A stretch of DNA of 64,000 nucleotides from Candidatus Magasanikbacteria bacterium RIFCSPHIGHO2_02_FULL_48_18 (lineage in GTDB: Bacteria > Patescibacteriota > Patescibacteriia > Magasanikbacterales > UBA922). The position numbers were made by a program, and so were the translations under genes. The stretch's first letter is position 1; every line of letters starts with the position of its first letter. The notes beneath the pieces are model-generated. The model searched no databases. It saw only the letters and a list, made by a program, of their open reading frames with translations, and was not told where the DNA came from. The stretch is from the NCBI GenBank assembly GCA_001784285.1, contig MFQC01000011.1:67640-131639 (forward strand), in the 5' to 3' direction. Positions 5,231 to 33,531 of the stretch are shown piece after piece.

Positions 5231-6739
5231 ATGCGTATGATGATGGACATTGGGCATAAAAAAAAGATGATTATTGTGGAAATACTGATTCTCGCAACGG
5301 CATCTCTTTTGTTTATTATTCCTCAACTGTACAGCCAAATCGCGCAGGACCAGCTCCCCGCGACCGGAGACCTCATACATCGTCGCATTGTCTATTTTCT
5401 CACGAATTTTCCCAACTTTCAGGATGCGCCGCCGTTTACTCTCTCACACTCGACGTTATATCATTACGTCATTTCGTATGTCAATATTATAACCGGTCTC
5501 GTCGGCGATACGGCATTTTATGGGTTCAGTATTCTGAACCTGCTGATGTTGCCGCTTGCCCTCTTGGTGGCTTTTGTCTTTGTGAGACGGCTCGCTCCTC
5601 GATATGGTATTTTCGCGGCACTGCTTATTCTATTAAATCCGCTTCTCCTCTTTCCTTTTTTTGGCCATGCGGATCAACATTTGATTTATATTTTTTTCTC
5701 TCTTTTTCTCTTTGTCATTCTTTTTTTTGAGCCAACGATAAAAACGCAAATGGCCGCCATCCTCCTATTCGGTGTATTGCTGAATAGTAGCTTGGCCATC
5801 TGGCTTCCGCTTGCGTTTATGATGTTGGTCTTAGAATTGGCATTTCCAAAATGGAAAATCCTCTTACTAGGGGCATGCAGTATGGCGCTGTATCTTCCTT
5901 TTTTACGACCGCCGCTGGGGTATCTCTTGTTTGGCGATTATCTGGTGCATCCAGAGACGCTCTTCAAGATACTTATCCTTCTTGGCGTTGGGGTTCTTCT
6001 CTTGCTTCTTTCCTATCGATATATTCAAAAACTCCACACAAAACAGATGGGCGCCTTCCTCATCGCGTCTGTCCTCACACTTTTTTTTCTGACATCCCAC
6101 CAAGGCGGCCCTTATGCAACCAATGTGCGTCCTCTTGCCAAACAAGCCATCCAAACGTCTTTTGAAGAAACGAGCTTTATCAACTATATTTTTTCCAACA
6201 ATCCCAGTAAACACGTTGATGGATTTTCTCTCTATATTGGCGTCATCATGTTCCTCGTGATTCTTTCACTCCAAACACTGAAAGAAAAGAACTGGCGTTT
6301 TACCACAAAAGAAAAGATACTCCACGCCATGATTTTTATCCCATTCGCATTAGCCTTGCTCCGGTATATGCTTCTCCGGGTTAATTTCGATTATTTTTTA
6401 TATACCCCAATCTACAATCTTCATGTTGGCCGGCTTATGTCCATTTCATTATTTTTACTTCCGCTGTCGCTTTCTCTCTATTGGCCCGCAATACAACGCG
6501 TGCTCAAGCCGATGGGAACAAAATTTCTCCTCTCTGTCATGGTTATTGTCATCGTTATGATTTCCCAATTTTATTATGTGAGAGTCTACCCGAATTGGAC
6601 ACAGCATACATACCAACAGGCAATACACCGAGCGCTGAAACAAGGCATTGGTGATGATCTCTCTCCTCCTGAAGCAGAATACGCGCGCCATTTTTTTCAG
6701 CATGACACCCTTTTTGGGACATCAGACATCCGACGATAG
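5231..6739 (+). CDS. polytopic integral membrane protein, candidate GT-C-type (lipid-linked sugar) glycosyltransferase; paralogue of 8623..10218
   Basis: more than 10 predicted TM helices; shares the FGHADQH...EPTIKTQMAAILLFGVLL block with the SMYWGI..GHATHRAF..EPKRLTAIFLLFGIV block of 8623..10218. Confidence 0.6.
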   Translation: MRMMMDIGHKKKMIIVEILILATASLLFIIPQLYSQIAQDQLPATGDLIHRRIVYFLTNFPNFQDAPPFTLSHSTLYHYVISYVNIITGLVGDTAFYGFSILNLLMLPLALLVAFVFVRRLAPRYGIFAALLILLNPLLLFPFFGHADQHLIYIFFSLFLFVILFFEPTIKTQMAAILLFGVLLNSSLAIWLPLAFMMLVLELAFPKWKILLLGACSMALYLPFLRPPLGYLLFGDYLVHPETLFKILILLGVGVLLLLLSYRYIQKLHTKQMGAFLIASVLTLFFLTSHQGGPYATNVRPLAKQAIQTSFEETSFINYIFSNNPSKHVDGFSLYIGVIMFLVILSLQTLKEKNWRFTTKEKILHAMIFIPFALALLRYMLLRVNFDYFLYTPIYNLHVGRLMSISLFLLPLSLSLYWPAIQRVLKPMGTKFLLSVMVIVIVMISQFYYVRVYPNWTQHTYQQAIHRALKQGIGDDLSPPEAEYARHFFQHDTLFGTSDIRR

Positions 6740-6764
6740 CGCGCCTCCCATTGTAAAACCTCCT

Positions 6765-7556
6765 ATGATAAGCATTCTCCTTGGCGTGTATAACGGGGAA
6801 AACGATCTCCCCCAAACACTCGCGAGTATCGCACACCAAACCTACACCGACTGGCATGTAGTTGCGGTTGACGATGGATCATGTGACAGAACCTATGACG
6901 TCCTCGCCCAATTTCAAAAACAATTTCCACAAAAAACGACCCTCCTCAAAAATGATCAAAATATGGGGCTGACCAAATCGCTCATAAAAGCCGCGGCGGT
7001 TGCCACTGGTTCGTACTTGGCGCGTCTTGATGCGGGAGACGAATTTCTTCCCGCCAAACTGGAAAAACAAATTGATTTTTTAGAACATCACCAGGATTAT
7101 GGCATCATAGGTTGCAATTATATCAACACCTTTCTCCCCTCTGGGAAAGAAAAAAAGAGCCGCCTCCCGATTGATAATAACGATATCCAAAAAACACTTA
7201 TCAAAAAAAACCCATTCGCCCACAGTTGTGTGCTTATTCGAAAAAAAATCTATACGAAGGCCGGCGGATATGACGAAACTATTCGATATGGCCAAGATTA
7301 TGAGTTATGGTTTCGAATCCTTCGCCTTTCAAAGGGCGCCAACCTGAGCGACCATCTCTGCGTGAGAACCATTCATACCAATCATATCAGCCTTTCTCTG
7401 GGGTATCGCAAACAAAGACAGCAAATGTGGCAAGGGATGAAAACACAATGGAAATATATGTCCAAAAAAAATGCGAAACATTACTTGTATATGCTCGGAC
7501 TGCTGAGTTTGATTTTGATTCCAGACATGATAAAAAAATATCTAAAAAAAAAATAA
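6765..7556 (+). CDS. glycosyltransferase family 2
   Basis: ISILLGVYNGEN...VAVDDGSCD (DxD-type GT-A N-terminal motifs); alternative ATG at 6702 overlaps the upstream gene. Confidence 0.75.
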   Translation: MISILLGVYNGENDLPQTLASIAHQTYTDWHVVAVDDGSCDRTYDVLAQFQKQFPQKTTLLKNDQNMGLTKSLIKAAAVATGSYLARLDAGDEFLPAKLEKQIDFLEHHQDYGIIGCNYINTFLPSGKEKKSRLPIDNNDIQKTLIKKNPFAHSCVLIRKKIYTKAGGYDETIRYGQDYELWFRILRLSKGANLSDHLCVRTIHTNHISLSLGYRKQRQQMWQGMKTQWKYMSKKNAKHYLYMLGLLSLILIPDMIKKYLKKK

Positions 7557-7610
7557 CTTTTGAAAGAACGCATGAAAAATCTTTCTTTGTAAAATATAAT
7601 ATAATATTTT

Positions 7611-8615
7611 ATGTTACGTGTGTGTTTTCCATTTAAACCAAAAATCTCAATCGGCGGAACGCGTACCTTTGCAGAACAGTTCACACGTGGGCTCCGATCT
7701 CGAGGCATTACTGTCATCTCGGACCCAAACCAACCATATGATGTTTTCTTCACAATCACAGGAAATAATATAACAGACGCCATCCAAGCAAAAAAACAAA
7801 GAATCCCAATCATACAGCGACTCGATGGCGTTTATTATTACAGCCTCCATGGCGTGCCATACTTCCTCCTCAACGCCAAAATGAAAATGATACATAATTG
7901 GCTTGCAGATGTGGTGATTTATCAAAGTAAATACTCGAAATTTTGTTGTGAACGCTTCTTAGGAAAGAGTCGCGCCAAACATTTCTCTGTTATTTATAAC
8001 GGCGTGGATTGCTTACAATTTTCACCGGCTGAAGCTCATGAAGTACCCCAGGAACATAAAAAAATCCTATTCACCGCAAGTGTGTTTAGAAGAAAAGACA
8101 TGATCGAACCAATAATCAAAGCATTGGACATACTGTGGGAACGGCGGAAGGATTTTATTTTTCTCGTGGCTGGAAATTTTCTTAGTGAAGCAAAAAAGTC
8201 CTTTCTTGATCTTCAACGACCATACACAAAATTTATTGGCCCTGTCACCAGATCAGAGCTCCCCAACCATCTCAGATCAAGCCACGTTTTCCTTTTTTCT
8301 TCCATCAATCCACCATGCCCAAATAGTGTATTAGAATCCATGTCATCCGGCGTACCTATTTGTGGAATAGCTATGGGAGCGATGCCAGAGCTTGTAGAAC
8401 ATGGTCGTGATGGCCTCTTAGTTCCTCATCATCATGACAACTTTTGGCATCTCCATCCAATTGATATAAAGACATTTGCATCAAATATTGAGTATATGAT
8501 GAATCATCATAAAAAAATGGGAAATCATGCGCGCAATCACGTAGAACGTGAATTTTCATTCAACCGCATGCTGGATCAATACATCGAAGTCCTTACATCC
8601 GCTGCCCGTGTGTAG
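7611..8615 (+). CDS. glycosyltransferase family 4
   Basis: FLFSSINPPCPNSVLESMSSGVPICGIAMGAMPELVEHGRDGLLV; TATAAT-like hexamers lie 5-16 nt upstream of the ATG. Confidence 0.8.
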   Translation: MLRVCFPFKPKISIGGTRTFAEQFTRGLRSRGITVISDPNQPYDVFFTITGNNITDAIQAKKQRIPIIQRLDGVYYYSLHGVPYFLLNAKMKMIHNWLADVVIYQSKYSKFCCERFLGKSRAKHFSVIYNGVDCLQFSPAEAHEVPQEHKKILFTASVFRRKDMIEPIIKALDILWERRKDFIFLVAGNFLSEAKKSFLDLQRPYTKFIGPVTRSELPNHLRSSHVFLFSSINPPCPNSVLESMSSGVPICGIAMGAMPELVEHGRDGLLVPHHHDNFWHLHPIDIKTFASNIEYMMNHHKKMGNHARNHVEREFSFNRMLDQYIEVLTSAARV

Positions 8616-8622
8616 CCATATT

Positions 8623-10218
8623 ATGATCGACGAATATATAAAAACATTTAAGTCTCTTTTCTACCGCATGCGCCCAACATCACGTGCTCTTATTATTTTT
8701 CTTTTTATAAGTATCTTGCTTTTTATTCGCAGTATTTATTTTGATAAATACCTCTCCTCCGATCAAATGTTTTTCCAACTAGTGTATCTTGGTAAAACAG
8801 AAATAAATTATTCGGACTACCGTGTTCCTGCGTTGGACTCATATATCCCATTTGTGTTCACTAACTATCTTCGTCAATTTTTTCAGGATCCCATCTGGGT
8901 ATATCGTTCGATTTTGCCAGTATTAATTTTTTTGTATCTTACATCTTTCTACGTTATTCTGAAAAAACTCATCCAAAAAGAATGGATTTCCATCATCGTA
9001 CCCTTGGTATCATTACTGCCTCGCAAGGCAATGGCTTCCATGTACTGGGGAATAATTACCATTGGGCATGCGACACACCGAGCATTTCTCCAACCTTTTT
9101 TTATACTCTTCTTTTATCTTTTATATCGCTACCAGCACGAACCGAAACGTCTCACCGCCATATTTCTTCTTTTTGGCATCGTCAGCAGCCTGTATCCAAC
9201 TCAATCTTTTTATCTGGTTGCAATCTCGTTCCTTACACTACTTATCACAAATCATTTCGCATGGAAAACATGGCGCCAATGCGTCTTGTATGGAATCGCT
9301 TTCTTGCTTGGCACGCTGTATTATATTCTTCCAAATCTTACAATAGGGCTAAACATAGACCCACTTGATCCGATGCTTATCCCAGAATTTAACGAAGCAC
9401 TTCGGTACCGTTTTTCCTATACCTTCTATCCCGGTAGCCTCTATACATATACCCGGTCGATACTTCTTGACAGCGCCCTGCTCTTTGCGATCTACATCTT
9501 CATCAACAAAAAAATACACACGCTGTCTTCTGAACACCAAAAACTTTTGCACTTCAGTAACATAAACCTCCTGTCTGTGGGCATCATCACATTTGGAATG
9601 CCACTGATACAAGATATCATAAGCGCACTATTCCACACGAGACTTCTTATATTTGAACAATTTGCCACCTCACGGTTTGCCTATCTTAATTTATATATTG
9701 GATTTGCCCTATTCTTACTATATATCAGACATCATACAAAAATTTCTTTCAAAAAAAGCAGTATATATATTGTCATCAGTATAACACTCCTAACTTTAAC
9801 AAATTTTTTTCTGTTATATGATCTCATTAAAAAAATCTATCCTCTTACTGAATTTTCAGTTACGAATCCAAATTTTCAAGAAACATGCGAATGGATTAAA
9901 ATAAACACAGACCCGTCTCTCCTTCTCATCACAGAAGATTTCAACTTTCGTCTCTGCACTGAAAGAAAAATCTTTGTGTCATGGAAAGATGGCATGGTAT
10001 ACCTCTACCGTTCACCAAAAAATTTTATTGAATGGTACCGCCGTCTCCGCGAGCAACAGGAGGCATACGCACAACATGATATAGTGACTCTTCTCACGAT
10101 TGCAAAAAATCAAAATGGGAGTATACTTATCGATAAACTATCGTGGCCTGAAATTACGACCTTGAAAACCTCTATCCTATTCGAAAACAACAGATATATA
10201 TTTTTGCATCCAAAATAA
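8623..10218 (+). CDS. polytopic integral membrane protein, candidate GT-C-type glycosyltransferase (intact paralogue)
   Basis: ATG at 8623 after the stop at 8615; many TM helices; conserved YWGI.T.GHATHRAFLQPF and LNIDPL..FNEALRYRFSYTFYP blocks recur in the remnant at 12600..13290. Confidence 0.65.
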   Translation: MIDEYIKTFKSLFYRMRPTSRALIIFLFISILLFIRSIYFDKYLSSDQMFFQLVYLGKTEINYSDYRVPALDSYIPFVFTNYLRQFFQDPIWVYRSILPVLIFLYLTSFYVILKKLIQKEWISIIVPLVSLLPRKAMASMYWGIITIGHATHRAFLQPFFILFFYLLYRYQHEPKRLTAIFLLFGIVSSLYPTQSFYLVAISFLTLLITNHFAWKTWRQCVLYGIAFLLGTLYYILPNLTIGLNIDPLDPMLIPEFNEALRYRFSYTFYPGSLYTYTRSILLDSALLFAIYIFINKKIHTLSSEHQKLLHFSNINLLSVGIITFGMPLIQDIISALFHTRLLIFEQFATSRFAYLNLYIGFALFLLYIRHHTKISFKKSSIYIVISITLLTLTNFFLLYDLIKKIYPLTEFSVTNPNFQETCEWIKINTDPSLLLITEDFNFRLCTERKIFVSWKDGMVYLYRSPKNFIEWYRRLREQQEAYAQHDIVTLLTIAKNQNGSILIDKLSWPEITTLKTSILFENNRYIFLHPK

Positions 10219-10249
10219 TCCTTATTCCTAATTTTTACGTACATACCGT

Positions 10250-11158
10250 ATGCATCCAGCATTTAAAGAAAATCCTTGCAATATCTGCCATGGTACGGAC
10301 ACAAAAGTTATTTATCCAGCGACACTTCCCGAGGATCTCTCTCTCGAAATAACAAAAAGATTCGCTCCCGCAGACCATGCAAAGGGAAATGACCAAATTG
10401 TTCAGTGTAACGTATGTGGGCTTGCATATGCCAACCCTCGAATGAAACAAGAATATATCTGGCAAGGATACAGCGAAGCGGTTGATACAAAATATGCAAC
10501 CCAAGCCGAAGAGCGAATCAACACGTTTAAACGTACCCTCCGGCTAATCCAACGATACGTCCCCGCAAAAGGGACGCTTATTGACATTGGATGCGCGGCG
10601 GGATTTTTTCTTAAAGTCGCGAAAGATGCCGACTGGAATGTCAAAGGAATCGAACCAAACAAAGGACTCGCGGAATTCGGTCGCGCTACCTACGGGGTCG
10701 ACATACAATCAAAAAATTTCCTTGACTCCGGCCTTGCGCAAGAATCATTTGACGTTGTTACTTTCTGGGATGTGCTGGAGCACGTGTCTGATCCCAGTGC
10801 ATACATTCGAGAATCATATCGCCTGTTAAAACCTCACGGGTTTATTTTCCTCAATTTTCCTGATTTTGGTTCTCGTCTTGCGAGGTGGAGTGGGCAAAAA
10901 TGGTGGTTTCTTTCACCGGTGCATATTTATTACTTCAATCGTTCCACGATAAAAAAACTTCTGGAGCAACAAGGATTTACAGTAAAAAAAATACAAATGC
11001 ACTGGCAAACGCTTGCACTCGGTTATCTTTTTGAACGATTTGCGGATTACAATAAAACAATATCAAAAATTGGCGTGTTTCTTTGCAACATGTTGCGAAT
11101 AGACAAATTACCTATTCGGTACTATGCCGGCCAAGCGCTTGTTATCGCTCAAAAGTAA
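10250..11158 (+). CDS. zinc-ribbon (CxxC...CxxC) plus class I SAM-dependent methyltransferase
   Basis: CNICHG...CNVCGLAYANP, then LIDIGCAAGFFLKVAKD motif I and DVVTFWDVLEHV; about 75% identical paralogue at 13349..14287. Confidence 0.7.
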   Translation: MHPAFKENPCNICHGTDTKVIYPATLPEDLSLEITKRFAPADHAKGNDQIVQCNVCGLAYANPRMKQEYIWQGYSEAVDTKYATQAEERINTFKRTLRLIQRYVPAKGTLIDIGCAAGFFLKVAKDADWNVKGIEPNKGLAEFGRATYGVDIQSKNFLDSGLAQESFDVVTFWDVLEHVSDPSAYIRESYRLLKPHGFIFLNFPDFGSRLARWSGQKWWFLSPVHIYYFNRSTIKKLLEQQGFTVKKIQMHWQTLALGYLFERFADYNKTISKIGVFLCNMLRIDKLPIRYYAGQALVIAQK

Positions 11159-11163
11159 CACCT

Positions 11164-11913
11164 ATGTATTTTTTCATTCTTTTCAAAAATCTTGCTATCA
11201 CGCTCTGTCGGGGGTTGGCTCTTCCTATAGTGATGAAACGCATCATGAGAGAAGGCCACGAAGCAGTGCTCCCCCGTGCGACCTATGCTCCGTGGCGCAC
11301 AGATGTTTCTTTTCTTTCATGCTACCAAAAAATAAAATCATTCACATTAGTTGATATCTATCGATGTTACGAATTATGGCAGCTCGTTCAGCAGACAAAA
11401 AAACTTGACGGTGCGCTGATAGAGGTTGGCGTATGGCGTGGTGGTACCGGAGCGATTATCGCGCAGAGAACAAAAGAGATGGGCGACAAAAATCCTGTCT
11501 ACTTGTGCGATACGTTTCAGGGTGTTGTAAAAACAAGCGCGCATGATACATATTACAAGGGGGGCGAATGGAAAAATACCTCTGGACAGATCGTCCAACA
11601 ACTTCTCAGCGGTCTTGGTCTTATAGACAGTGTTCGGATTCTCCAAGGTATATTCCCAGAAGAAACAGGCCACGCCATACAGGAACAAAAAATAAAATTT
11701 TGCCACATTGATGTTGATGTCTATACTTCCGCGAAGGATATAACCACGTGGATATGGGATAAATTAGTAGTGGGAGGAATACTTGTATACGACGACTTTG
11801 GCTTCCCTTCTTGTGATGGTGTAAGAAAACTTGTTCATGAGGAATATGAAAAAAATGACCGGATTATCATCCACAATCTGAATGGACATGCAGTTGTTAT
11901 CAAAATACGTTAA
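11164..11913 (+). CDS. TylF/MycF-family (macrocin-O-methyltransferase-like) sugar O-methyltransferase
   Basis: ATYAPW...DGALIEVGVWRGG...VYLCDTFQG...FCHIDVDVYTS...GGILVYDD match the TylF-family signature blocks; alternative ATG at 11233. Confidence 0.6.
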   Translation: MYFFILFKNLAITLCRGLALPIVMKRIMREGHEAVLPRATYAPWRTDVSFLSCYQKIKSFTLVDIYRCYELWQLVQQTKKLDGALIEVGVWRGGTGAIIAQRTKEMGDKNPVYLCDTFQGVVKTSAHDTYYKGGEWKNTSGQIVQQLLSGLGLIDSVRILQGIFPEETGHAIQEQKIKFCHIDVDVYTSAKDITTWIWDKLVVGGILVYDDFGFPSCDGVRKLVHEEYEKNDRIIIHNLNGHAVVIKIR

Positions 11914-11926
11914 GCGAATATTTCGT

Positions 11927-12600
11927 ATGCAATTACTTTCAATCATCATACCGGTATTCAACGAAAAAAAACCATTAAAGAACTTATACGCCGTGTGGAA
12001 GAAGTTGACTTCCCACTAGCAAAAAAAGAAATCATCATCGTGGATGATGGATCAACTGATGGAACACTGGAGCTATTAAAACAAGACATAGCACAGACAC
12101 ACACGGTCATTCCCCATATAAAAAATCAAGGAAAAGGAGCGGCGATTAGAAGTGGACTGCGTGCAGCCCATGGCGATTTCTTTATCATTCAAGATGCTGA
12201 CTTAGAATACAATCCAAAAGATATCGTCCCTTTACTTCAGGTGCTTCTGGATGGACCGCATGAAATCGCCTTCGGCTCTCGTGCATTGGGCATGGTTGAT
12301 ACAAAACAATATGAATCGTCCATCTTTTATCTTGGCGGCAAACTAGTGACATGGTGGACAAATTTTCTTTACAAGACGCATCTCACGGACCAGGCAACAT
12401 GTTATAAAATGTTTACTAAAAAAGTTCTCGAATCTATCCACCTCACATGCGCTGGATTTGAATTTTGCGCTGAATTTACTGGCAAAGCTTTAAACGCTCA
12501 ATACACAATCCATGAAGTGCCTATATCCTACAAACCGCGAGGGAAAAAAGATGGCAAAAAAATTAAACTAAAAGATAGCCATACTTGTCCCCCTTTCTTT
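11927..12600 (+). pseudogene. GT2 polyprenyl-phosphate sugar synthase-like gene inactivated by a -1 frameshift in an A8 homopolymer
   Basis: ATG 11927 gives MQLLSIIIPVFNEKK then runs out of frame at A8 (11964..11971); the -1 frame continues TIKELIRRVEEVDF..., colinear with the intact paralogue 14651..15349. Confidence 0.6.
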
Positions 12601-13290
12601 CTCTATATACCGCATACGGCTCTTGGGTCGCAATATTGGGGCATTGTGGCCCTTGGACACGCAACGCATAGAGCATTCCTTCAACCATTTGCAGTCCTCC
12701 TTTTTTATTTTCTCTTTACTTTCCGAGACCAAACAAAATACCTAGCCATTGCCTTCTTTGATTTTGGATTGGTCAGCGCGCTCTATCCAACCCAAGCGTA
12801 GTATCTCGTTCTTATCAGCCTTGTTTGTTTTGTATGGTTCTACAAATTTCAGGCCCATGCCTGGAAGAAAGCTTTTCTTTTTGGCGTCAGTTTTGTTGTC
12901 GGGGCTCTTCCTTCCGTGGTGCCCAATCTTACTGTCGGACTCAATATTGATCCGCTGTCATCCTCTCTTGTCGCCAAATTCAACGAAGCGTTGCGTTACC
13001 GATTCAGTTATACTTTTTATCCGGAGAGCCTTTTTATCCATGACCGCTCCCCGCAAGACTTTATTTCTTGGTACGATCGGCTTCGCGCCCAGGAAGAGGC
13101 CTACCAGAAAAATGATTTTATGCTTTTGTCCGGTCTTTCCCATGAACGTCATACGGCTATTGTGATAGAACAAAAAAAATGGAGCGCCCCCATACCCCCA
13201 TCGCTCATATGGCATCAAAATCCAGACTATATCGTGGCCAAACCGGCTCTCCGGAAAGACAACGCCGAGCAGGAACCCGAGAGTTGAGAA
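12600..13290 (+). pseudogene. decayed remnant of the GT-C-like membrane protein gene, fused in frame to the GT2 pseudogene, with internal deletion and frameshifts
   Basis: SQYWGIVALGHATHRAFLQPF... follows GT2 residues KIKLKD in one ORF; LNIDPL..FNEALRYRFSYTFYP and WYDRLRAQEEAY blocks appear in two other frames; about 200 codons of the 8623 paralogue are missing. Confidence 0.55.
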
Positions 13291-13348
13291 AAAAACATAA
13301 TTTGGGTATACTGGAACAGTTCTTATCTTAATAATCCCTCCGCCCTGT

Positions 13349-14287
13349 ATGCTTCACCCTGCCTTTGAAGAAATCGCATGCAATATTTGTGGCCAACAGA
13401 AGACAAAAATTATTTATCCAAGCACCCTGCCCCAAGACTTGTCTCTTGCAGTGACCGAACGTTTTGCTCCCGCAGACCATGCAAAAGGCAACGATCAAAT
13501 CGTGCAATGCCTCAACTGCGGTTTGGCGTACGCAAATCCGCGCATGAAAGCCGACTACATTTGGCAAGGGTATAGCGACGCCGTTGATACGAAGTATGTC
13601 ACTCAGGCGGAAGAGCGAATGAGGACCTTCAAACGGACCATACGCATTATTGAACAATACCAACCACAAAAAGGAAAGCTATTGGACATCGGGTGTGCCG
13701 CCGGTTTTTTTTTGAAGGTGGCAAAAGACGCAGGATGGAATGTCCAAGGCGTTGAACCAAACAAAGGACTCGCAACATTCGGCGCCGCGCGATATGACGT
13801 TCCCATTCTTTCAAAGAATTTCCTCTCGTCCGAACTGGAAGCATCCGCATACGATGTCGTCACTTTTTGGGATGTCCTGGAACATGTTCCGGACCCATCC
13901 GCCTATATCCGTGAATCGCACCGAATCCTCAAACCCGGCGGCTTTCTCTTTTTGAATTTTCCTGATTTTGGTTCGCGTCTTGCTCAATGGAGCGGACAAA
14001 AATGGTGGTTTTTGTCTCCCGTGCATATTTATTACTTTAATCGTCAAACCATCAGCGCGTTGCTCCAAAAAGAAAAATTCGCCGTACAAAAAATCAACAT
14101 GCATTGGCAAACCCTTTCGTTGGGATATCTTTTTGGAAAATTTGCCGATTATAACCGGTTCATTTCAAAAACGGGCGTCGCCCTTTCCAAAATGCTCGGC
14201 ATGTATCGGCTTCCTGTTCGATACTACGCAAGCCAGGCTATGGCAATCGCTCAAAAACCGCATACATCGTATGACAAAACTCATTAA
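13349..14287 (+). CDS. zinc-ribbon plus class I SAM-dependent methyltransferase (paralogue of 10250..11158)
   Basis: CNICGQ...CLNCGLAYANP; LLDIGCAAGFFLKVAKD; colinear with 10250..11158. Confidence 0.7.
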   Translation: MLHPAFEEIACNICGQQKTKIIYPSTLPQDLSLAVTERFAPADHAKGNDQIVQCLNCGLAYANPRMKADYIWQGYSDAVDTKYVTQAEERMRTFKRTIRIIEQYQPQKGKLLDIGCAAGFFLKVAKDAGWNVQGVEPNKGLATFGAARYDVPILSKNFLSSELEASAYDVVTFWDVLEHVPDPSAYIRESHRILKPGGFLFLNFPDFGSRLAQWSGQKWWFLSPVHIYYFNRQTISALLQKEKFAVQKINMHWQTLSLGYLFGKFADYNRFISKTGVALSKMLGMYRLPVRYYASQAMAIAQKPHTSYDKTH

Positions 14288-14639
14288 TATCGGCATTATC
14301 CTCGTGAATGTTGCCCTGGCCGTGAGCGGCCAGGTTGCTATTAAAATAGGGATGAAGCAGATCGGCTATATCACCTCAGGAAATACCCTCTCTCTTATTC
14401 TGAAATCATTTTCCAATTGGTATGTTCTTTTTGGACTGGGAGCGTACGCGTTGGCCGCAGTGACATGGATTGTCGTACTCTCCCGGGTGGAGCTGAGTTA
14501 TGCCTATCCTCTGTTGAGTCTGGGATATGTCGCTATTGTGCTTATATCCATACTCTTTCTCAAAGAACCGCTCAGCATTTTTCGTCTTCTCGGCACCGCC
14601 CTCATTATTGCCGGGGTGGTTCTTATTTTCAAAAGCTGA
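14271..14639 (+). CDS. small 4-TM DMT/SMR-like membrane protein (ArnE/ArnF/GtrA-like lipid-linked sugar flippase subunit)
   Basis: 122 aa, four hydrophobic helices (IGIILVNVALAVSGQVAIKIG...LIIAGVVLIF); ATG 14271 overlaps the upstream stop by 17 nt. Confidence 0.6.
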   Translation: MTKLINIGIILVNVALAVSGQVAIKIGMKQIGYITSGNTLSLILKSFSNWYVLFGLGAYALAAVTWIVVLSRVELSYAYPLLSLGYVAIVLISILFLKEPLSIFRLLGTALIIAGVVLIFKS

Positions 14640-14650
14640 GCCATGATGGT

Positions 14651-15349
14651 ATGCCAACACTCTCCATTATTATACCGGTATACAACGAACGGCACACGAT
14701 CCTTCCCCTTCTCAAACGGGTTGAATCGGTTGATTTCAAAGATGTGCGCAAAGAAATTATTATCGTGGATGACGGTTCCACAGACGGCACCACAGAACTC
14801 CTCCAGCAACATATTGTGCCAAGACACATAGTGCTTTTTCATGAAAACAATAAGGGCAAAGGGACGGCAATCCGGACAGGGTTGAAAAAAGCGACCGGGG
14901 ATTTCCTTGTGGTCCAGGATGCGGATCTTGAATATGAGCCGCATGATCTTCTTTTCCTCCTTGCGGCCATGGAAGAAAAACAACACCCCGTCGTTTTTGG
15001 ATCGCGAGCGCTCGGTAAAAACAAAACATATTCGTCGTATATCTTTCATATAGGGGGAAAAATGGTCACGTGGTGGACAAATGTTCTGTTTGGCACATCG
15101 CTGACCGATGAAGCAACATGCTATAAAATGTTTACCAGACCCGTCCTCAATGCCATCACGCTTACTTGCACGGGATTTGAATTTTGTCCGGAATTCACCG
15201 CAAAAGTACTGAATGCCGGATATGCCATCCACGAAGTGCCAATTTCGTATATGCCTCGAGGAAAAAAAGAAGGAAAAAAAATAAAAGTCAAGGATGGACT
15301 CACCGCATTCTGGACGCTTCTTACATTGCGGCTCACGCGCACGATATGA
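14651..15349 (+). CDS. GT2 polyprenyl-phosphate sugar synthase-like glycosyltransferase (DPM1/GtrB-like, soluble form)
   Basis: LSIIIPVYNE...IIVDDGSTDGT...VVQDADLEYEP; intact paralogue of the pseudogene at 11927. Confidence 0.75.
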   Translation: MPTLSIIIPVYNERHTILPLLKRVESVDFKDVRKEIIIVDDGSTDGTTELLQQHIVPRHIVLFHENNKGKGTAIRTGLKKATGDFLVVQDADLEYEPHDLLFLLAAMEEKQHPVVFGSRALGKNKTYSSYIFHIGGKMVTWWTNVLFGTSLTDEATCYKMFTRPVLNAITLTCTGFEFCPEFTAKVLNAGYAIHEVPISYMPRGKKEGKKIKVKDGLTAFWTLLTLRLTRTI

Positions 15350-16791
15350 TCTCACCAACGTTTGACACACCCTCATTTGCAAAGCAAACCGGAAGCGCCG
15401 CTATTTTTGGCGCCGGCCCGACAGGGCTTTCCACGGCATGGCGACTGGCAAAACATGGATGGAAAGTGACGCTCATAGAAAAAGAAAAAGAACTCGGCGG
15501 CCATGGCGGGACGCATACCATTCACGGCTATGACGTGGATAACGGACCCCACAAATTGTACCCCCAAGTTCCTTGCGCCAAACCATTTATTGATCATTTT
15601 GTCGGAAAAGATTTGCTGACCATGTCAAAAAAAAGCAGTGTCTATGTGCGGGAAACGTATATTCCTTTTCCTTTTGGATTGGGCGATTTATTCCATGGAC
15701 TCGGCCTTATGACCGGCCTTCGATGCGGAATAGGATATGGCCTGGGAAAAATAGAACGTGTATTTCGCGGAAGCCCATCCACATATACTGACTTTGTCAT
15801 TGCCCAGTATGGCCGGTACGCGCATGAATTGGTATTTCGGCAAGTGGCAGAAAAACTGTGGGGGGATCCCGACACGCTCCACGTCCAACTTGCAAAAACA
15901 CGCATCATTGCGCCAAACGTGTGGGAACTCATCGGCCAATTGCTTTTTAGGACGCGAAATAAGCCCAAATTGAGCGCTGACGAATTTTATTATCCACGGC
16001 ATGGATTGCGCCAACTATGGGAATCGGTGGGAACAGAAATCGAAACGCATGGAGGAACCATTATTCGAGAAACAAAGCCAACCCATATACTATCCAACAA
16101 AACTGGAGGATTTGAGGTAACATACCAAGGAAACGACACAGAACACACAATACAGTCGGATGTGATTATTTCGACAATTCCACTCAAGGCCGCTCTTCAT
16201 CTTTTGGATCCTGCCCCCCCTTCTCAAATCACGGACGCCATGAACCATCTCGCCTACAGTTCTCTCCTGGTTGTCTACCTCGTGGTTGACACCCCGCGGC
16301 TTCTGCCCGTCAATTGGATTTTTTTTCCAGAAAAAAATCTCCACTTTGCTCGGCTTTCAGAACAAAAAGGATTCAGCGAAACCATGGTGCCAAAAGATAA
16401 AACGGTCCTCATGGTTGAAATTCCGCTCGCCAGGCCCGCCATTGCCTCCATGGACCGCGAATGCCTCATTGCTGAAGCCATCGAGCAATTGCGCCGTGTC
16501 GGCATTCTCAAACCAATTCACCATATTGTGGATATGTTTACAGGATATAATGATTCGATTTATCCGATTTATGATACACAGTCTCTCGGCCGTCTGGAGA
16601 CGATTCTTTCATGGACAGACAACATACCAAATTTCTATCTCAATGGACGGCTGGGGTTGTTCTGCTACAATAATATGGACCATAGCATGGAAATGGGGTT
16701 AGCTCTTGGCGACCATATCGCCTCGCAACAACCCGCTCCTGCCTGGATACAAACGAGAAAAAGCTTCTACGACTATAAAATAGTCGACTAA
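15346..16791 (+). CDS. FAD/NAD(P)-binding oxidoreductase (amine-oxidase / protoporphyrinogen-oxidase-like fold)
   Basis: Rossmann dinucleotide motif AIFGAGPTGLSTAWRLAK...LIEKEKELGG; its ATG overlaps the GT2 TGA (ATGA). Confidence 0.7.
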   Translation: MISPTFDTPSFAKQTGSAAIFGAGPTGLSTAWRLAKHGWKVTLIEKEKELGGHGGTHTIHGYDVDNGPHKLYPQVPCAKPFIDHFVGKDLLTMSKKSSVYVRETYIPFPFGLGDLFHGLGLMTGLRCGIGYGLGKIERVFRGSPSTYTDFVIAQYGRYAHELVFRQVAEKLWGDPDTLHVQLAKTRIIAPNVWELIGQLLFRTRNKPKLSADEFYYPRHGLRQLWESVGTEIETHGGTIIRETKPTHILSNKTGGFEVTYQGNDTEHTIQSDVIISTIPLKAALHLLDPAPPSQITDAMNHLAYSSLLVVYLVVDTPRLLPVNWIFFPEKNLHFARLSEQKGFSETMVPKDKTVLMVEIPLARPAIASMDRECLIAEAIEQLRRVGILKPIHHIVDMFTGYNDSIYPIYDTQSLGRLETILSWTDNIPNFYLNGRLGLFCYNNMDHSMEMGLALGDHIASQQPAPAWIQTRKSFYDYKIVD

Positions 16792-19477: not shown

Positions 19478-20797
19478 TCAATTGGATTGTGTATCTTCAT
19501 ACCGATAAAGAAAAATATTGACAATTTTGTATACCAAAAAAAGCACGAATGACACCAAGACGGTTGCGATGACAGAGCCGGTCACCCCATACCATGTGGA
19601 AAAAGCATACATGCACGCAACGTTGATTGCCCCGATACAAAATGTTATAGCCGTGGTAAACACGATTCCTTTTTTTCCTTCCGCGGCGACAATCCAAATA
19701 TCAATGAGATAAAACAAATTCAATATTGCGGCGAGACTAAACAAAAGAAGCCAATCCCATCGAAAAAGATACTCTTTCCCGAAAAGATAAAGAAAAAAAT
19801 AACCAAAAGCAACAATGCCGCCAAACAGCGGTACTGCCAAAACTTTGTTGAGTGTATTTATTTTTCGCACAATGTCTCGTTTTTTGGGCATGCGAGAAAC
19901 CATGGGGAAAAAAACATTATTAAATATGGTCAAAAATTGAGAGGCGAAGGTAAATGTCGCGGTATAATACGCCATGTACAACCCAACGGAAGATGCGCCA
20001 ACCGCATACGATACAATAATCCGATTGATATTTAAAAACAAAAAACCGGCAACACCGCCCAATGCCGCAAAAAAAGAATAAAAAATAATTTTTTTCAAAA
20101 TGCGAAAAGAAAAACGGCCAAAGGAAGAAAAAAAGGGAAAAAAAACCAAAAGACAAAATACCGCCAAACCGATGCTCAGACTTATGCTATACACAAAAAA
20201 AGAACGTATGTGAAAGAAAAAAAGGGAAAAAGTAATTACAGAAAATACCACTATGGCCTCACCGACGCGAGCGACAAGTTGTAATGTAAACCGGCGAAAA
20301 CCGCGTGTAAAGCCGTCAAAGACATTTTTCAACGCAAGCGGGATGGCATAGACAAAACCAAAAAAGAGAATTAACGGATCCACCTGAAGAAATACCGAGA
20401 GCGGCCGATAAAAAAAGAAAAAAAGAACACACACAGGCACAAGAGAGGCCAACGTGCTCGTCAATACAACGGTCATGATGCGCCCTTTTTCTTTTTCATC
20501 CCCTTCGTTTGCGATATATCGCACTGCCGCGGTATTAAAGCCGGGCGCCATCAAAAAAAGAAACAGATACCCGTAGCTCACAGCCAATCCTGCCTTGCCA
20601 TATTCGGCAGGACCGAGCATCCTCCCCATAAGAATACTCGTTCCAAACAAAAAAATGCCCGCAAGTCCGTTGCCGAGCGCAGACACAAAAATATCTTTGA
20701 AAAAAACAATTTTTGTCTCCCCTACTCTTTTTTTAAAGATGAAAAAATAGAAAAAATCAAGAAACCCAATCATTTTTTTTTCAAGAGAACGGAGCAT
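19478..20797 (-). CDS. MOP-superfamily polysaccharide flippase (Wzx / MATE-like)
   Basis: 440 aa with about 12-14 TM helices, typical oligosaccharide flippase architecture; alternative starts at 20773 and 20833 (TTG). Confidence 0.7.
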   Translation of the reverse strand: MLRSLEKKMIGFLDFFYFFIFKKRVGETKIVFFKDIFVSALGNGLAGIFLFGTSILMGRMLGPAEYGKAGLAVSYGYLFLFLMAPGFNTAAVRYIANEGDEKEKGRIMTVVLTSTLASLVPVCVLFFFFYRPLSVFLQVDPLILFFGFVYAIPLALKNVFDGFTRGFRRFTLQLVARVGEAIVVFSVITFSLFFFHIRSFFVYSISLSIGLAVFCLLVFFPFFSSFGRFSFRILKKIIFYSFFAALGGVAGFLFLNINRIIVSYAVGASSVGLYMAYYTATFTFASQFLTIFNNVFFPMVSRMPKKRDIVRKINTLNKVLAVPLFGGIVAFGYFFLYLFGKEYLFRWDWLLLFSLAAILNLFYLIDIWIVAAEGKKGIVFTTAITFCIGAINVACMYAFSTWYGVTGSVIATVLVSFVLFLVYKIVNIFLYRYEDTQSN

Positions 20798-20854
20798 ACC
20801 ACAACGCCATTTTGATTGAGAAGAGATGAACAAATACGCTTATCCACACGGTAT

Positions 20855-23973: not shown

Positions 23974-24960
23974 TCAATACTCTTCTTTTTCTGTTTCAAA
24001 GTTTATTTTTTGCTTTATGACATAGAGCGGCCTATTGGCCACTTCGTGATGAATTTGTCCAATATAGAGGGCAATAAACCCAAGACAGCTCAATACAATG
24101 CCGATTAAAAACATATTGAGGACAGCAAGCTGTGCCGTACCCGTAAAATCAAGCGACCAGCGGTGAAAAAGATACTGGGTCGCAAAAATAAATATGCCCA
24201 AAAGCCCGGAAAATACCGTGATGCCCATGCCAAGATACCCGGCGATTTTTAACGGAAACAAACTGTAGGCGGCAAACGTATCCATTGCCAAACTCCATCG
24301 TTTTTTGCCTGCGTATGTCGCTTTCCCAATTTTTCTCCCCGGATTGATAAACGGAACATACACGGTTGGAAATCCAAGCCAATCAATAAGGCCACGGGTC
24401 ATGCGGTCGTGCTCGGTGAATTTCTTGAATTCAAGAACGACCGCCCGGTCGAGCAGGCGAAAATCCGTGGCATTCGGAACAAACTCGCCGGATCGATCCG
24501 CAATGCGGGCCATCAGCGAATAAAAAATCCACGAACTGAAACGGGTAAAAAATGGCCGCTCATTTTTGTTCTCCCGCACGCCAACCACAATTTTTGCTCC
24601 ACTTCTCCAATGATCCAAAAAAGAAGGAATATATTCCGGCGGATGCTCAAAATCCGCGTCCATGACGAGACACGCGTCGCCTGAGGCGGCGATAATGCCA
24701 GCGGTGGTTGCCATTTCTTTTCCAAAATTTCGGGTAAAGGTTATCACGCGAACATTCGGATCACGGGTTGCCAATCGAGACAGTATTTCGGGCGAACGAT
24801 CGGTGCTTCCGTCATCCACAAAAATAAACTCAGGTGCGATGTGCTCCAATGGCGCTAGCGTAACCGACGCCACGACCTGTATGATCCGATCATACAAATT
24901 TTCAATGGCATGTTCTTCATTGAAAACCGGAATAATGAGAGAAACAACGGGTCTCGGCAT
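23974..24960 (-). CDS. ArnC/GtrB/DPM1-like GT2 polyprenyl-phosphate glycosyltransferase with two C-terminal TM helices
   Basis: VSLIIPVFNEE...FVDDGSTDRS...VMDADFEHPP plus a C-terminal hydrophobic pair (LFPLKIAGYLGMGITVF... / MFLIGIVLSCLGFIALYIG). Confidence 0.8.
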   Translation of the reverse strand: MPRPVVSLIIPVFNEEHAIENLYDRIIQVVASVTLAPLEHIAPEFIFVDDGSTDRSPEILSRLATRDPNVRVITFTRNFGKEMATTAGIIAASGDACLVMDADFEHPPEYIPSFLDHWRSGAKIVVGVRENKNERPFFTRFSSWIFYSLMARIADRSGEFVPNATDFRLLDRAVVLEFKKFTEHDRMTRGLIDWLGFPTVYVPFINPGRKIGKATYAGKKRWSLAMDTFAAYSLFPLKIAGYLGMGITVFSGLLGIFIFATQYLFHRWSLDFTGTAQLAVLNMFLIGIVLSCLGFIALYIGQIHHEVANRPLYVIKQKINFETEKEEY

Positions 24961-25002
24961 ATGGTATGTTGCCAGTGGCAAAACTATGGAGAGCGGCTTT
25001 AC

Positions 25003-25038
25003 TTCTTCCCGGCTACTATTTCTTCCCAGCTACTATTT
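25003..25038. repeat. 16-17-bp imperfect tandem duplication (cttcccRgctactattt x2) spanning the fusA stop codon
   Basis: on the minus strand ...ATAGTAGCTGGGAAGAAA|TAGTAGCCGGGAAGAAG; the second unit supplies the TAG stop of fusA. Confidence 0.5.
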
Positions 25039-27091
25039 CAGCCTCGACATTCTTTGGGACTTCTGCATAATGGCTGAATTCCATGCTGGAGCTGGCGCGT
25101 CCTTGGGTAATGGATCGCAAATTCGTAACATACCCAAACATTTCCGCGAGTGGAACCAGAGCGCGCACCACTTTCACCTGGCCACGATCGGTCATTTCTT
25201 GAATCTGTCCGCGTTTGGAACTAAGGTCCCCGACCACATCTCCCATGTGCTGTTCCGGGGTCGTGACTTCGATTTTCATGATTGGCTCAAGGATAACCGG
25301 CTGGGCTTTTTTTACCGCGGCCTGGAATGCGATGCTTCCGGCCATTTTAAACGCAATTTCCGAGGAGTCAACTTCATGATAACTCCCGTCATAGACCGTG
25401 GCTTTGACGTCAACGATCGGGTATCCGGCCACGACTCCTTTATCAATGGCTTCCTTCACTCCTTTTTGGATGGCAGGGATATATTCCCTCGGAATAATAC
25501 CTCCTTTGATCACATCCACAAATTCAAAGCCTTCGCCGCGCTCGCGCGGCTCAATCTTAATCCAGCAATGCCCGTACTGTCCGCGACCGCCCGATTGTTT
25601 GATATATTTTCCTTCAGCCTCAGCCGTGGTTTTAATGGTTTCTTTGTATGCCACCTGGGGGGCGCCGACATTTGCCCCAACGCCAAACTCTCGTTTCATG
25701 CGGTCAACCAAAATATCAAGGTGCAACTCCCCCATTCCGGAAATAATGGTTTGAAGGGTTTCTTCATCGGTATGAATTTTGAAGGAGGGGTCCTCATCGG
25801 CAAGTTTTTGGAGTGCCATGCCCATTTTTTCTTGGTCTGCTTTTGTCTTGGGTTCAATGGCAACGGAAATAACCGGCTCAGGAAATGTAATTTTTTCCAA
25901 CACAACCGGCCGATCTTCAAAACAAAGCGTGTCACCGGTTTTGACATTTTTCAATCCAATCGCGGCCGCGATATCGCCGGAATGCACTTCGTTGATTTCT
26001 TCGCGTGTATTGGCATGCAAGCGCACCAATCGGCCAATGCGTTCTTTTTCACCGGTCGTGGTATTCAATACGTAACTCCCTGCGTTCAATGTGCCCGCAT
26101 AGACACGAATAAAAATCAGGCGTCCGACGTAAGGGTCGCTTGCCACTTTAAACGCAAATGCAGAAAGCGGCGATGCGTCATCCGGAACAATTTCAATCTT
26201 TTTTTCTTCGTCATCGGGATCGGTGCCAATGACCGGAGGCAAATCAAGCGGAGAAGGCAAATATGCCACCACCCCGTCCAATACGAACTGCACTCCGATG
26301 TTGCCAAGGGCCGATCCGCAAAAGACAGGGTAACAGCCATCTCGAATAACCATGGAGCGAATGCCATGTTTTATTTCAGGGATCGAAAGTTCTTGACCGC
26401 CAAGATATTTGTCCATGAGTTCTTCGCTCGCTTCGGCCACTTTTTCGAGGAGGGTCGCGCGATATGCCGCAACCGATTCTTTCATATCGTCGGGAATAGG
26501 CATCTCGACCACGTTTATGCCGTGGTCGCCTTCAAACCGATACGCTTTCTGTTCAATAAGGTCGATAATCCCGGAAAAAGAAGATTCCGCGCCAATCGGC
26601 AATTGCACCGCAAACGCCTTATTGGACAATCGCTCCTGAATGGACGCGAGGCTCATAAAAAAATCCGCCCCCATTTTGTCCATTTTGTTGACAAAGCAGA
26701 TGCGCGGCACATGGTATTTGTCGGCCTGCCGCCATACGGTCTCGGACTGCGGCTCCACTCCTTGAGAGCCATCAAACACCGCGACCGCGCCGTCGAGAAC
26801 GCGCAACGAGCGCTCAACTTCCACGGTAAAGTCAACGTGCCCGGGCGTATCGATGATATTGATGAGATGGTCTTTCCAAAAACATGTGGTGGCGGCGCTC
26901 GTAATGGTGATGCCTCGCTCTTTTTCCTGCGCCATCCAGTCCATTTCTGCGGCGCCTTCGTGCACTTCTCCAATTTTATGTTTTTTTCCTGTATAAAAAA
27001 GGACGCGTTCGGTGGTAGTGGTTTTCCCCGCGTCAATATGGGCCATAATTCCGATGTTCCGAGTTTTTTCAAGGGTATATTCTCTAGGCAT
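25016..27091 (-). CDS. fusA: translation elongation factor G
   Basis: [13 protein letters not shown]1 motif, DTPGHVDF, 691 aa collinear with EF-G. Confidence 0.95.
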
Positions 27092-27094
27092 ATA

Positions 27095-27589
27095 TCATGA
27101 TTTCTTTTTGGTTGATCGAAAACGAGCAAAGTGAGCGAACGCGCGGTTTGCTTCGGCCATGCGGTTCACGTCCTCTTTCTTTTTCATGGCCGCGCCAACG
27201 CCATCAAGAATGTCTGACAGCTCGGACGCCAGCCGGTCAACCATGGATTTGCCTTTTCGTGTTCGCGCGGCGGCAGTAAGCCAGCGAAACGCGAGTGCGT
27301 TTTGGCGGCCCGGCGGAACAGGCATCGGCACCTGGTAATTTGCGCCCCCAACCCGTCGAGACCGCACCTCGACTGAGGGTTTCAATTTTTCAACCGCTTC
27401 TTCAAACAATTTCAATGGCGGTTCTTTTCTTTTTTCTTCCAAAAGAGAAAGCGCCCCGTACACAATTTTTTGAGCAACGGTTTTCTTGCCTCGTTCCATC
27501 ACAAAATTGATAAATTTTGCGATGATCTCACTGTGATATAACGGATCCGGTTCAATAACCCGTCGTGGTGCGGATTTGCCTCGTGACAT
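27095..27589 (-). CDS. rpsG: 30S ribosomal protein S7
   Basis: MSRGKSAPRR...; S7 family length and sequence; 3 nt upstream of fusA. Confidence 0.9.
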   Translation of the reverse strand: MSRGKSAPRRVIEPDPLYHSEIIAKFINFVMERGKKTVAQKIVYGALSLLEEKRKEPPLKLFEEAVEKLKPSVEVRSRRVGGANYQVPMPVPPGRQNALAFRWLTAAARTRKGKSMVDRLASELSDILDGVGAAMKKKEDVNRMAEANRAFAHFARFRSTKKKS

Positions 27590-33307: not shown

Positions 33308-33380
33308 TTGGTCGGGGTAACACGACTTGAACGTGCGGCCTCCCCGATTGCGATCGGGGCGCGCTACCAAGTAACAATAG
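33308..33380 (-). pseudogene. tRNA-like fragment: T-arm, acceptor 3' strand and encoded CCA present, 5' acceptor and D-stem absent; contains the perfect palindrome CCCCGATCGCAATCGGGG
   Basis: minus strand ...TTGGTAGCGCGCCCCGATCGCAATCGGGGAGGCCGCACGTTCAAGTCGTGTTACCCCGACCA; T-arm is 27/29 identical to tRNA-Pro(GGG), but no 5' acceptor strand complementary to TACCCCG is present. Confidence 0.35.
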
Positions 33381-33381
33381 G

Positions 33382-33454
33382 TCGGGCTAGGCAGACTCGA
33401 ACTGCCGGCCTCATCGTCCCGAACGATGCGCGCTACCAACTGCGCTATAGCCCG
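33382..33454 (-). tRNA. tRNA-Pro (anticodon CGG)
   Basis: cloverleaf folded by hand: acceptor CGGGCTA/TAGCCCG, D GCGC/GCGC, anticodon stem CATCG/CGATG, loop TTCGGGA, T-arm GGCAG-TTCGAGT-CTGCC; no encoded CCA. Confidence 0.85.
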
Positions 33455-33458
33455 ATTG

Positions 33459-33531
33459 TCGGGGTGACACGGCTTGAACGTGCGACCTCATGACCCCCAG
33501 CCATGCGCTCTACCAACTGAGCTACACCCCG
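33459..33531 (-). tRNA. tRNA-Pro (anticodon GGG)
   Basis: acceptor CGGGGTG/CACCCCG, D GCTC/GAGC, anticodon stem CATGG/TCATG, loop CTGGGGG, T-arm GCACG-TTCAAGC-CGTGT; no encoded CCA. Confidence 0.85.

Follow-up and report, generated by a model that had tools for sequence, protein, structure and literature searches.

Two diverged copies of a predicted lipid-linked glycosylation cassette stand in tandem in a 64 kb stretch of contig MFQC01000011.1 from Candidatus Magasanikbacteria bacterium RIFCSPHIGHO2_02_FULL_48_18 (the window hereafter; all coordinates are positions in it, and L-numbers denote retrieved related loci or contigs). An earlier note on this DNA had read the arrangement as an old tandem duplication followed by subfunctionalisation and decay. 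Sequence comparison instead indicates that normal purifying selection acted on both cassettes through nearly the whole of their divergence, and that the disabling lesions are few and recent, comprising the junction between the copies, one TAG codon, a 555-bp in-frame deletion and a slip from nine to eight A residues in one glycosyltransferase gene. The origin that we favour, with a probability of about one half, is that a diverged xenologous or allelic block (7611–12585) recombined into a resident cassette; the complementary pattern of intact and broken genes is the plain geometry of one junction.

Layout of the two units

Self-comparison of the window by tblastx gave one collinear diagonal, 9001–12585 against 12589–15304, which establishes that the tandem arrangement of two diverged cassettes described earlier is real. 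Along this diagonal, 9001–9459 paired with 12592–13050 (52% amino acid identity), 10009–10146 with 13045–13182 (41%), 10250–11161 with 13352–14263 (74%) and 11926–12585 with 14650–15304 (58–71%). Nucleotide identity between the units was 69–71% by blastn, and a repeat search recovered the same offsets, 3102 and 2719.

Both units lie on the plus strand and share the order GT-C membrane protein, Zn-ribbon methyltransferase, variable middle gene and family 2 glycosyltransferase (GT2). Unit A holds an intact 516-residue GT-C protein (GT-C-A, 8668–10218, with alternative starts at 8623 and 8548 and Pfam DUF6798 at the C-terminus), a class I S-adenosylmethionine (SAM) methyltransferase with an N-terminal four-cysteine Zn-ribbon (MT-A, 10250–11158; Pfam Methyltransf_23 and Methyltransf_11), a TylF-like O-methyltransferase found in this unit only (11164–11913; Pfam TylF, E = 8 × 10−22) and a disabled GT2 resembling polyprenyl-phosphate-sugar synthases (GT2-A, 11927–12585; three-frame translation and Pfam Glycos_transf_2). 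Unit B holds a remnant of the GT-C gene (GT-C-B, 12589–13287, delimited by alignment to GT-C-A), an intact methyltransferase paralogue (MT-B, 13349–14287; Pfam), a 122-residue EamA/SMR-like membrane protein that resembles ArnE and ArnF and is a putative flippase subunit found in this unit only (14271–14639), and an intact GT2 of 232 residues, again polyprenyl-phosphate-sugar-synthase-like (GT2-B, 14651–15349; Pfam). The split that had been described thus stands, with an intact GT-C gene in unit A only, intact GT2 and flippase-like genes in unit B only, and the methyltransferase intact in both, and the functional calls made for these genes agree with the Pfam, NCBIfam and fold comparisons. An identity of about 70–75% between the paralogues fits the methyltransferases (73.8%), but not the GT2 proteins (64%) or the GT-C remnant (46%).

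The lesions and the junction

GT2-A starts at ATG 11927 with MQLLSIIIPVFNEKK and is then shifted by −1 in a run of eight A residues (A8, 11964–11971, plus strand, from the three-frame translation). One added A (A9) restores the frame and yields MQLLSIIIPVFNEKKTIKEL, collinear with GT2-B, and the Pfam Glycos_transf_2 match begins at profile position 27. The frameshift noted earlier is therefore confirmed, and the gene proved also to be truncated at its 3′ end and fused to GT-C-B. Homology to GT2-B stops at 12585, 14 codons before the GT2-B stop, and past a TGT codon (12586–12588, plus strand, from codon-level comparison) homology to the interior of GT-C starts in the same frame at residue ~112. 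The tblastx segments end at 12585 and start at 12592, and the junction is placed within one codon.

What remains of GT-C-B corresponds to residues ~112–263 and 449–516 of GT-C-A; about 111 N-terminal residues are gone, and the remnant lacks the aspartate module that follows the first transmembrane helix (TM1). It carries a TAG at 12799–12801 and an in-frame deletion of 185 codons (555 bp) at ~13042–13050, and alignment to GT-C-A revealed no frameshift or further decay beyond these and the truncation. Two open reading frames (ORFs) in the region, a GT2-like chimera of 268 residues created by the in-frame join (11995–12801, plus strand) and a 123-residue ORF within the remnant region (12916–13287, plus strand), are junction debris.

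Another reading of the chimera, to which we attach very little weight, is that it is a phase-variable second polyprenyl-phosphate-sugar synthase switched on and off by slippage between A8 and A9. In the A9 form, ORF 11927–12801 would join a complete GT2 catalytic domain to two hydrophobic helices from the GT-C fragment, an architecture that would mimic membrane-anchored GtrB, ArnC and DPMS; if true, slippage would make surface glycosylation phase-variable in a bacterium of the Candidate Phyla Radiation (CPR). The A8 tract was unchanged in L006, L013 and L019–L025. A/T runs are abundant in the 64 kb (64 of at least 8, 7 of at least 9 and 1 of at least 10), many of them intragenic as Lys codons, and the A8 in GT2-A is therefore not a special feature.

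An error of metagenome assembly or sequencing, either a chimeric join of strains or a homopolymer miscall, might be suspected, given that the organism is uncultured and that the frameshift sits in a homopolymer. The junction, however, is non-homologous, linking the 3′ end of GT2 to the interior of GT-C, and the junction, the A8 frameshift and the TAG were identical in at least seven contigs from different samples and assemblers, including megahit contigs, ENA ANAN16-labelled scaffolds, Logan contigs and an NCBI metagenome-assembled genome (MAG; GCA_001783105.1). The exact chimeric ORF was present on 21 contigs from many samples, and the A8 recurred in L006 and L013, both of which came from queries with other proteins. 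With the same lesion structure across samples and assemblers, an artefact is scarcely credible.

Between the window and L020/L021 (GCA_001783105.1 and an ENA ANAN16-labelled scaffold), the only genuine single-nucleotide polymorphism over 4.5 kb was at position 12988 in the GT-C-B remnant (G>T, Ala>Ser). Apparent strain differences in L007 and L014 gathered near the ends of the contigs and were set aside as errors of assembly there, while contig breaks at 7228–7257, considered as a strain branch point, coincided with two A8 runs and were uninformative.

Age and decay of the copies

Synonymous differences between units A and B were saturated (proportion of synonymous differences, pS, ~0.8), at the same level as between the window genome and its relatives. 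Because pS exceeded 0.75 in nearly all comparisons, dN/dS was not computed, and relative-rate (Tajima-type) and invariant-retention tests were used in its place, with L001 and L004 as outgroups. Replacements unique to the GT-C-B remnant and to GT-C-A numbered 30:22 (L001) and 26:22 (L004), those unique to GT2-A and GT2-B 18:24 and 24:16, and those unique to MT-A and MT-B 24:28 and 20:24, none of these asymmetries being significant. Of 70 positions at which six full-length homologues do not vary, the remnant kept 62 (89%), compared with 86–92% when functional members were left out in turn, and it also kept the asymmetry of codon positions (differences of 0.275 at the second position vs. 0.661 at the third). 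In neutral simulations, one stop in 232 codons corresponded to ~0.03–0.05 substitutions per site, with at most about 0.05–0.2 fitting the remnant. Had the entire B branch (~0.37 substitutions per site) evolved neutrally, the probability of no more than one stop would be 0.017. Equal rates, retention of invariant residues and the scarcity of lesions therefore show that both cassettes stayed functional through almost the whole of their divergence. The divergence is ancient, and the lesions, the junction among them, are recent.

These results bear on the model of the earlier note, in which an old tandem duplication had its breakpoints inside GT-C and GT2 and the incomplete genes have since undergone slow decay and subfunctionalisation. 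Duplicating ~9001 to ~12585 would yield the exact topology in one step, with a full GT-C gene at the left and a full GT2 gene at the right. With synonymous sites saturated, however, a remnant disabled as early as that would not be expected to remain in frame with one stop, no frameshift, the observed share of invariant residues and no excess of rate; GT2-A likewise shows no acceleration, and a fragment without the catalytic loop module would have had no reason to keep GT-C motifs such as FNEALRYRFSYTFYP over such a time. We consider this model very improbable, and subfunctionalisation with gradual decay finds no support in the rate tests, the invariant residues or the lesion count.

Origin of the second cassette

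The cassette was single-copy in all five relatives in which it was compared (L001, L004, L016, L017 and L018), which makes one copy the ancestral state. These relatives have the layout GT4, GT-C, methyltransferase, in most cases the EamA-like gene, GT2 and oxidoreductase. GT4 precedes GT-C in every relative, and an orthologue of the 122-residue flippase-like protein occupies the same position in L004, L016, L017 and L018, while L001 lacks the gene. No TylF-like gene occurred in any of these five cassettes; at its position the relatives, like unit B, have the flippase-like gene or no gene. The right-hand neighbour of unit B in the window, an FAD/NAD-binding oxidoreductase related to amine oxidases and PRK07208 (15346–16791, plus strand; NCBIfam PRK07208 models), is likewise the right-hand neighbour in all five. 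The ancestral gene order is that of unit B and its right flank.

We also compared base composition at third codon positions (GC3). The block at 7611–12585 begins with a GT4-family glycosyltransferase gene (7611–8615, plus strand; Pfam Glyco_trans_1_4 and Glycos_transf_1; GC3 0.379), and each of its five genes had a GC3 of 0.355–0.400. Pooled GC3 was 0.385 in this block and 0.479 in unit B with the oxidoreductase, against 0.474 for the remainder of the window (39 genes), so that the block differed from unit B (chi-square, P = 2 × 10−7) and from the rest (P = 8 × 10−12), while unit B did not differ from the rest (P = 0.74). GC3 of the GT-C-B remnant was 0.43–0.49. Gene trees for GT-C placed GT-C-A with L018 in 278 of 300 bootstraps and the B remnant outside, and an asymmetry of 43:14 with L018 used as 'outgroup' carries the same message; five of seven genes in L018 had a GC3 of 0.34–0.41, close to that of the block.

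On the reading that we favour, a block of GT4, GT-C-A, MT-A, TylF and GT2-A would have come from a lower-GC relative and displaced the resident GT4 gene together with the 5′ portion of its GT-C neighbour, with a homologous or near-homologous join at the left and an illegitimate join, the single junction at 12586–12588, at the right. Recombination into a resident cassette would lead directly to the 'split' intact set, in which the newcomer GT-C, methyltransferase and TylF proteins would work with the resident GT2, flippase and methyltransferase. The net effect would be a switch of glycan type and not subfunctionalisation.

Several observations weigh against this origin. On codon pairs with identical amino acids the GC3 contrast was weaker (pooled sign test, P = 0.058), and similarly low values (0.366–0.381) occur in a few further genes of the glycan locus. 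MT-A and MT-B were sisters in 266 of 300 neighbour-joining bootstraps, in conflict with the GT-C tree, a placement that fits duplication within the lineage or import from a very close relative of the host. Homologue, genome and metagenome searches found neither a donor-like genome with the GT-C, methyltransferase, TylF and GT2 block nor a sister strain without block A, and all biochemical roles assigned to the cassette derive from homology, with NCBIfam scores below the equivalog cut-offs. The GT2 tree favoured neither placement of the A and B copies. A scan of JGI metagenome contigs with the remnant sequence and the family alignment gave no match and no full-length GT-C of the B type. The word-index protein search was incomplete, in that a query with MT-B did not list MT-A despite 74% identity.

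The sister placement of the methyltransferases also favours the strongest alternative, an ancient in situ tandem duplication of complete cassettes, both of which long remained functional, perhaps for two sugars or methylation patterns, before a recent deletion of ~0.45–0.55 kb took the 3′ end of GT2-A, the spacer and the 5′ end of GT-C-B, with secondary lesions afterwards. Equal rates and few lesions are as this scenario predicts, as is the collinear head-to-tail layout, and the content of the middle gene varies among relatives too, as in L001. Co-oriented paralogues that have long been adjacent should nevertheless share GC3, in contrast to the values of the two units, and the grouping of GT-C-A with L018 would require L018 and every other relative each to have lost one copy, when two copies were seen in none of the five. 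We therefore regard ancient duplication with a late deletion as possible but the less probable account, behind recombination of a diverged block.

Predicted function of the cassette

Pfam covers only the 60-residue C-terminal DUF6798 domain of the GT-C family, which is rare: a full profile search yielded 261 representatives at E ≤ 1 × 10−3 among 1.84 billion, and a word-index search four clusters. Neither DUF6798 nor the MAG accession turned up in searches of the literature. Membership of the GT-C fold was judged by superposition on solved GT-C enzymes and by a conserved acidic residue in the loop that follows TM1, expected to be the first extracytoplasmic one. The AlphaFold 2 (AF2) model of GT-C-A had high confidence (predicted local distance difference test score, pLDDT, 92.2; predicted template modelling score, pTM, 0.91), and Foldseek against the PDB returned DPY19 (E = 9 × 10−6), STT3, AftA, PglB and ArnT, all with probability 1.00 and with TMq values of 0.40–0.53, about 0.5 except for PglB and ArnT (0.40–0.45). 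After TM1 (residues 3–25), D32 stands in the motif 'LSSDQ', invariant in four close homologues and kept as 'DQ' in the consensus of 66 family sequences. Because the model is of high confidence and the aspartate after TM1 is invariant, DUF6798-containing proteins are assigned, on this structural prediction, to the GT-C-fold glycosyltransferases.

The best PDB sequence matches of GT2-B were DPMS (5mlz, 9 × 10−16), ArnC (1 × 10−14) and GtrB (5 × 10−9), and its best NCBIfam models were AglJ, ArnC, PpgS and a Dol-P-hexose transferase, all below the cut-offs and, for AglJ, ArnC and PpgS, far below the equivalog ones. For the 122-residue protein, Pfam EamA scored 29.2 bits (cut-off 28.2), while NCBIfam ArnF (E = 1.3 × 10−15; 57.9 bits, cut-off 99) and ArnE (E = 2 × 10−9) both fell below their cut-offs. 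The four N-terminal cysteines of MT-A (C10, C13, C53 and C56) were invariant in 14 homologues. Outside its own family, the nearest homologues of the Zn-ribbon methyltransferase were from DPANN archaea (Micrarchaeota and Nanoarchaeota; 40–48% identity). A 292-residue antisense ORF (14504–15382, minus strand) spans all of GT2-B.

Taken at the level of homology, the cassette would encode a three-component module for extracytoplasmic glycosylation from a lipid-linked sugar, with tailoring enzymes. The GT2 enzyme would load a sugar onto polyprenyl phosphate at the cytoplasmic face, the small ArnE/F-like protein would flip the lipid-linked sugar across the membrane, and the DUF6798-containing GT-C enzyme would transfer the sugar to an acceptor at the cell surface; the sugar is probably modified by the Zn-ribbon SAM methyltransferase and the FAD oxidoreductase. 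A polyprenyl-phosphate-linked sugar is the putative donor for GT-C-A, suggested by the genomic association of its gene with those for an ArnE/F-like protein and a GT2 akin to DPMS and ArnC. The locus is predicted to contain one working three-component system, not two.

The neighbouring 502-residue membrane protein

A polytopic membrane protein of 502 residues (5231–6739, plus strand), conserved but without a match in Pfam or NCBIfam, had been taken for a third, distant paralogue of the GT-C proteins. Its similarity to GT-C-A was not significant (BLASTP, E = 0.096), phmmer against 157 proteins of the GT-C family returned nothing below E = 0.03, and it was absent among the top 150 hits of the family profile search. 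Alignment of profiles by hhalign gave 88% probability over only 87 N-terminal columns (residues 44–131) and set the aspartate after its TM1 against D32 of GT-C-A. The AF2 model was of low confidence (pLDDT 60.7), with STT3 (E = 7 × 10−3) and ArnT (probability 0.84–0.89) as best PDB matches. An orthologue occupies the same position in L001, L010 and L016. The protein may have a GT-C fold. At most, its gene would be a second one for this fold, with an ancient relationship to GT-C-A, and it lies outside the duplication. The profile searches that the earlier note had proposed for the membrane proteins thus gave a DUF6798 match at the C-terminus of GT-C-A and left the 502-residue protein outside every Pfam family.

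Between this gene and the GT4 gene lies a further GT2 gene (6765–7556, plus strand; Pfam). A more distant relative (L010, L011 and L012) keeps the 502-residue protein and its GT2 neighbour and lacks the DUF6798 cassette; downstream it carries a different, reverse-strand membrane protein of 512–520 residues with no Pfam family, which is another sign that specificity genes of the locus are exchanged.

The surrounding locus and other observations in the window

The glycan locus around the cassettes extends over ~25 kb (1–24981). Besides several GT2 and GT4 genes it encodes seven or more SAM methyltransferases, a polysaccharide deacetylase, a homologue of asparagine synthase, an SGNH-like protein and a Wzx-like flippase (19478–20833, minus strand). 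Its gene order is mostly kept in L001 and L018. In two lineages (L013, 1586–1975; L017, 10724–11143) the locus is flanked by DUF1616, a family found mainly in archaea. Only L016 was returned as a relative by the genome scan; this MAG (CAZCGY010000005.1) bears the title 'uncultured Gammaproteobacteria'. In gene order its locus matches L004 and L005, at 92–99% protein identity, and it has the cassette in common with relatives from Candidatus Magasanikbacteria; the label or the binning may be wrong. In the window itself, housekeeping genes are of bacterial type, and NCBI names the proteins that match exactly as those of a Candidatus Magasanikbacteria bacterium.

Elsewhere in the window, an 812-residue ORF (24662–27100, plus strand) runs antisense across the entire EF-G gene (25016–27091, minus strand); it is unusually long for a genome of 46% GC and is probably a shadow ORF. 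A protein of 545 residues (30474–32114, minus strand) has a UbiA-type prenyltransferase domain in its C-terminal half only (residues 280–545), with no domain assigned to the N-terminal 280 residues. Two tRNA-Pro genes (anticodons CGG and GGG) stand in tandem with 3 nt between them (33380–33531, minus strand).

Comparison with known systems

The most useful outputs of this analysis are the GT-C assignment for DUF6798, the recognition of the chimeric ORFs as debris and the re-dating of the lesions as recent. One recent recombination between homologous cassettes that had long been functional can leave a pattern that looks like a diverged tandem duplication whose copies decayed in complementary ways, and equal-rate tests, retention of invariant residues and GC3 tell the two readings apart. 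Candidatus Magasanikbacteria appear to decorate their surface via lipid-linked, probably methylated, sugars and appear to exchange the glycan genes that determine specificity.

Three-component systems based on polyprenyl-phosphate sugars include GtrA/GtrB/Gtr* in O-antigen glucosylation, ArnC/ArnE-ArnF/ArnT in the modification of lipid A with L-Ara4N, and CsbB/GtcA/YfhO in teichoic-acid glycosylation of Gram-positive bacteria. As in these, the three parts of the cassette are encoded in adjacent genes, with a GT2 that resembles DPMS, ArnC and GtrB, a small ArnE/F-like protein of four transmembrane helices and a polytopic protein with a predicted GT-C fold. Unlike them, the cassette has a GT-C protein of an uncharacterised family and a GT2-B of only 232 residues without C-terminal transmembrane helices, adds a Zn-ribbon methyltransferase and an FAD oxidoreductase, and occurs in a CPR bacterium.

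A classical tandem segmental duplication with intragenic breakpoints would share with this locus the head-to-tail arrangement, the full left gene in the first copy and the full right gene in the second. It would not share the combination of saturated synonymous sites with barely degraded sequence, the difference in composition or the GT-C copies that are not each other's closest relatives. Loci for O-antigen, capsule and cell-wall glycans evolve as mosaics in which blocks of genes are replaced by diverged alleles, with remnants left at the junctions. The window has the same hallmarks, namely a block of atypical GC3, remnants exactly at the junction, incongruent trees for neighbouring genes and a variable middle gene, and differs in that the replacing block is homologous to what it replaced, thereby mimicking a tandem duplication and leaving an in-frame GT2::GT-C ORF. 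In this comparison the feature is ordinary glycan-locus mosaicism, with nothing unexpected for glycan loci.

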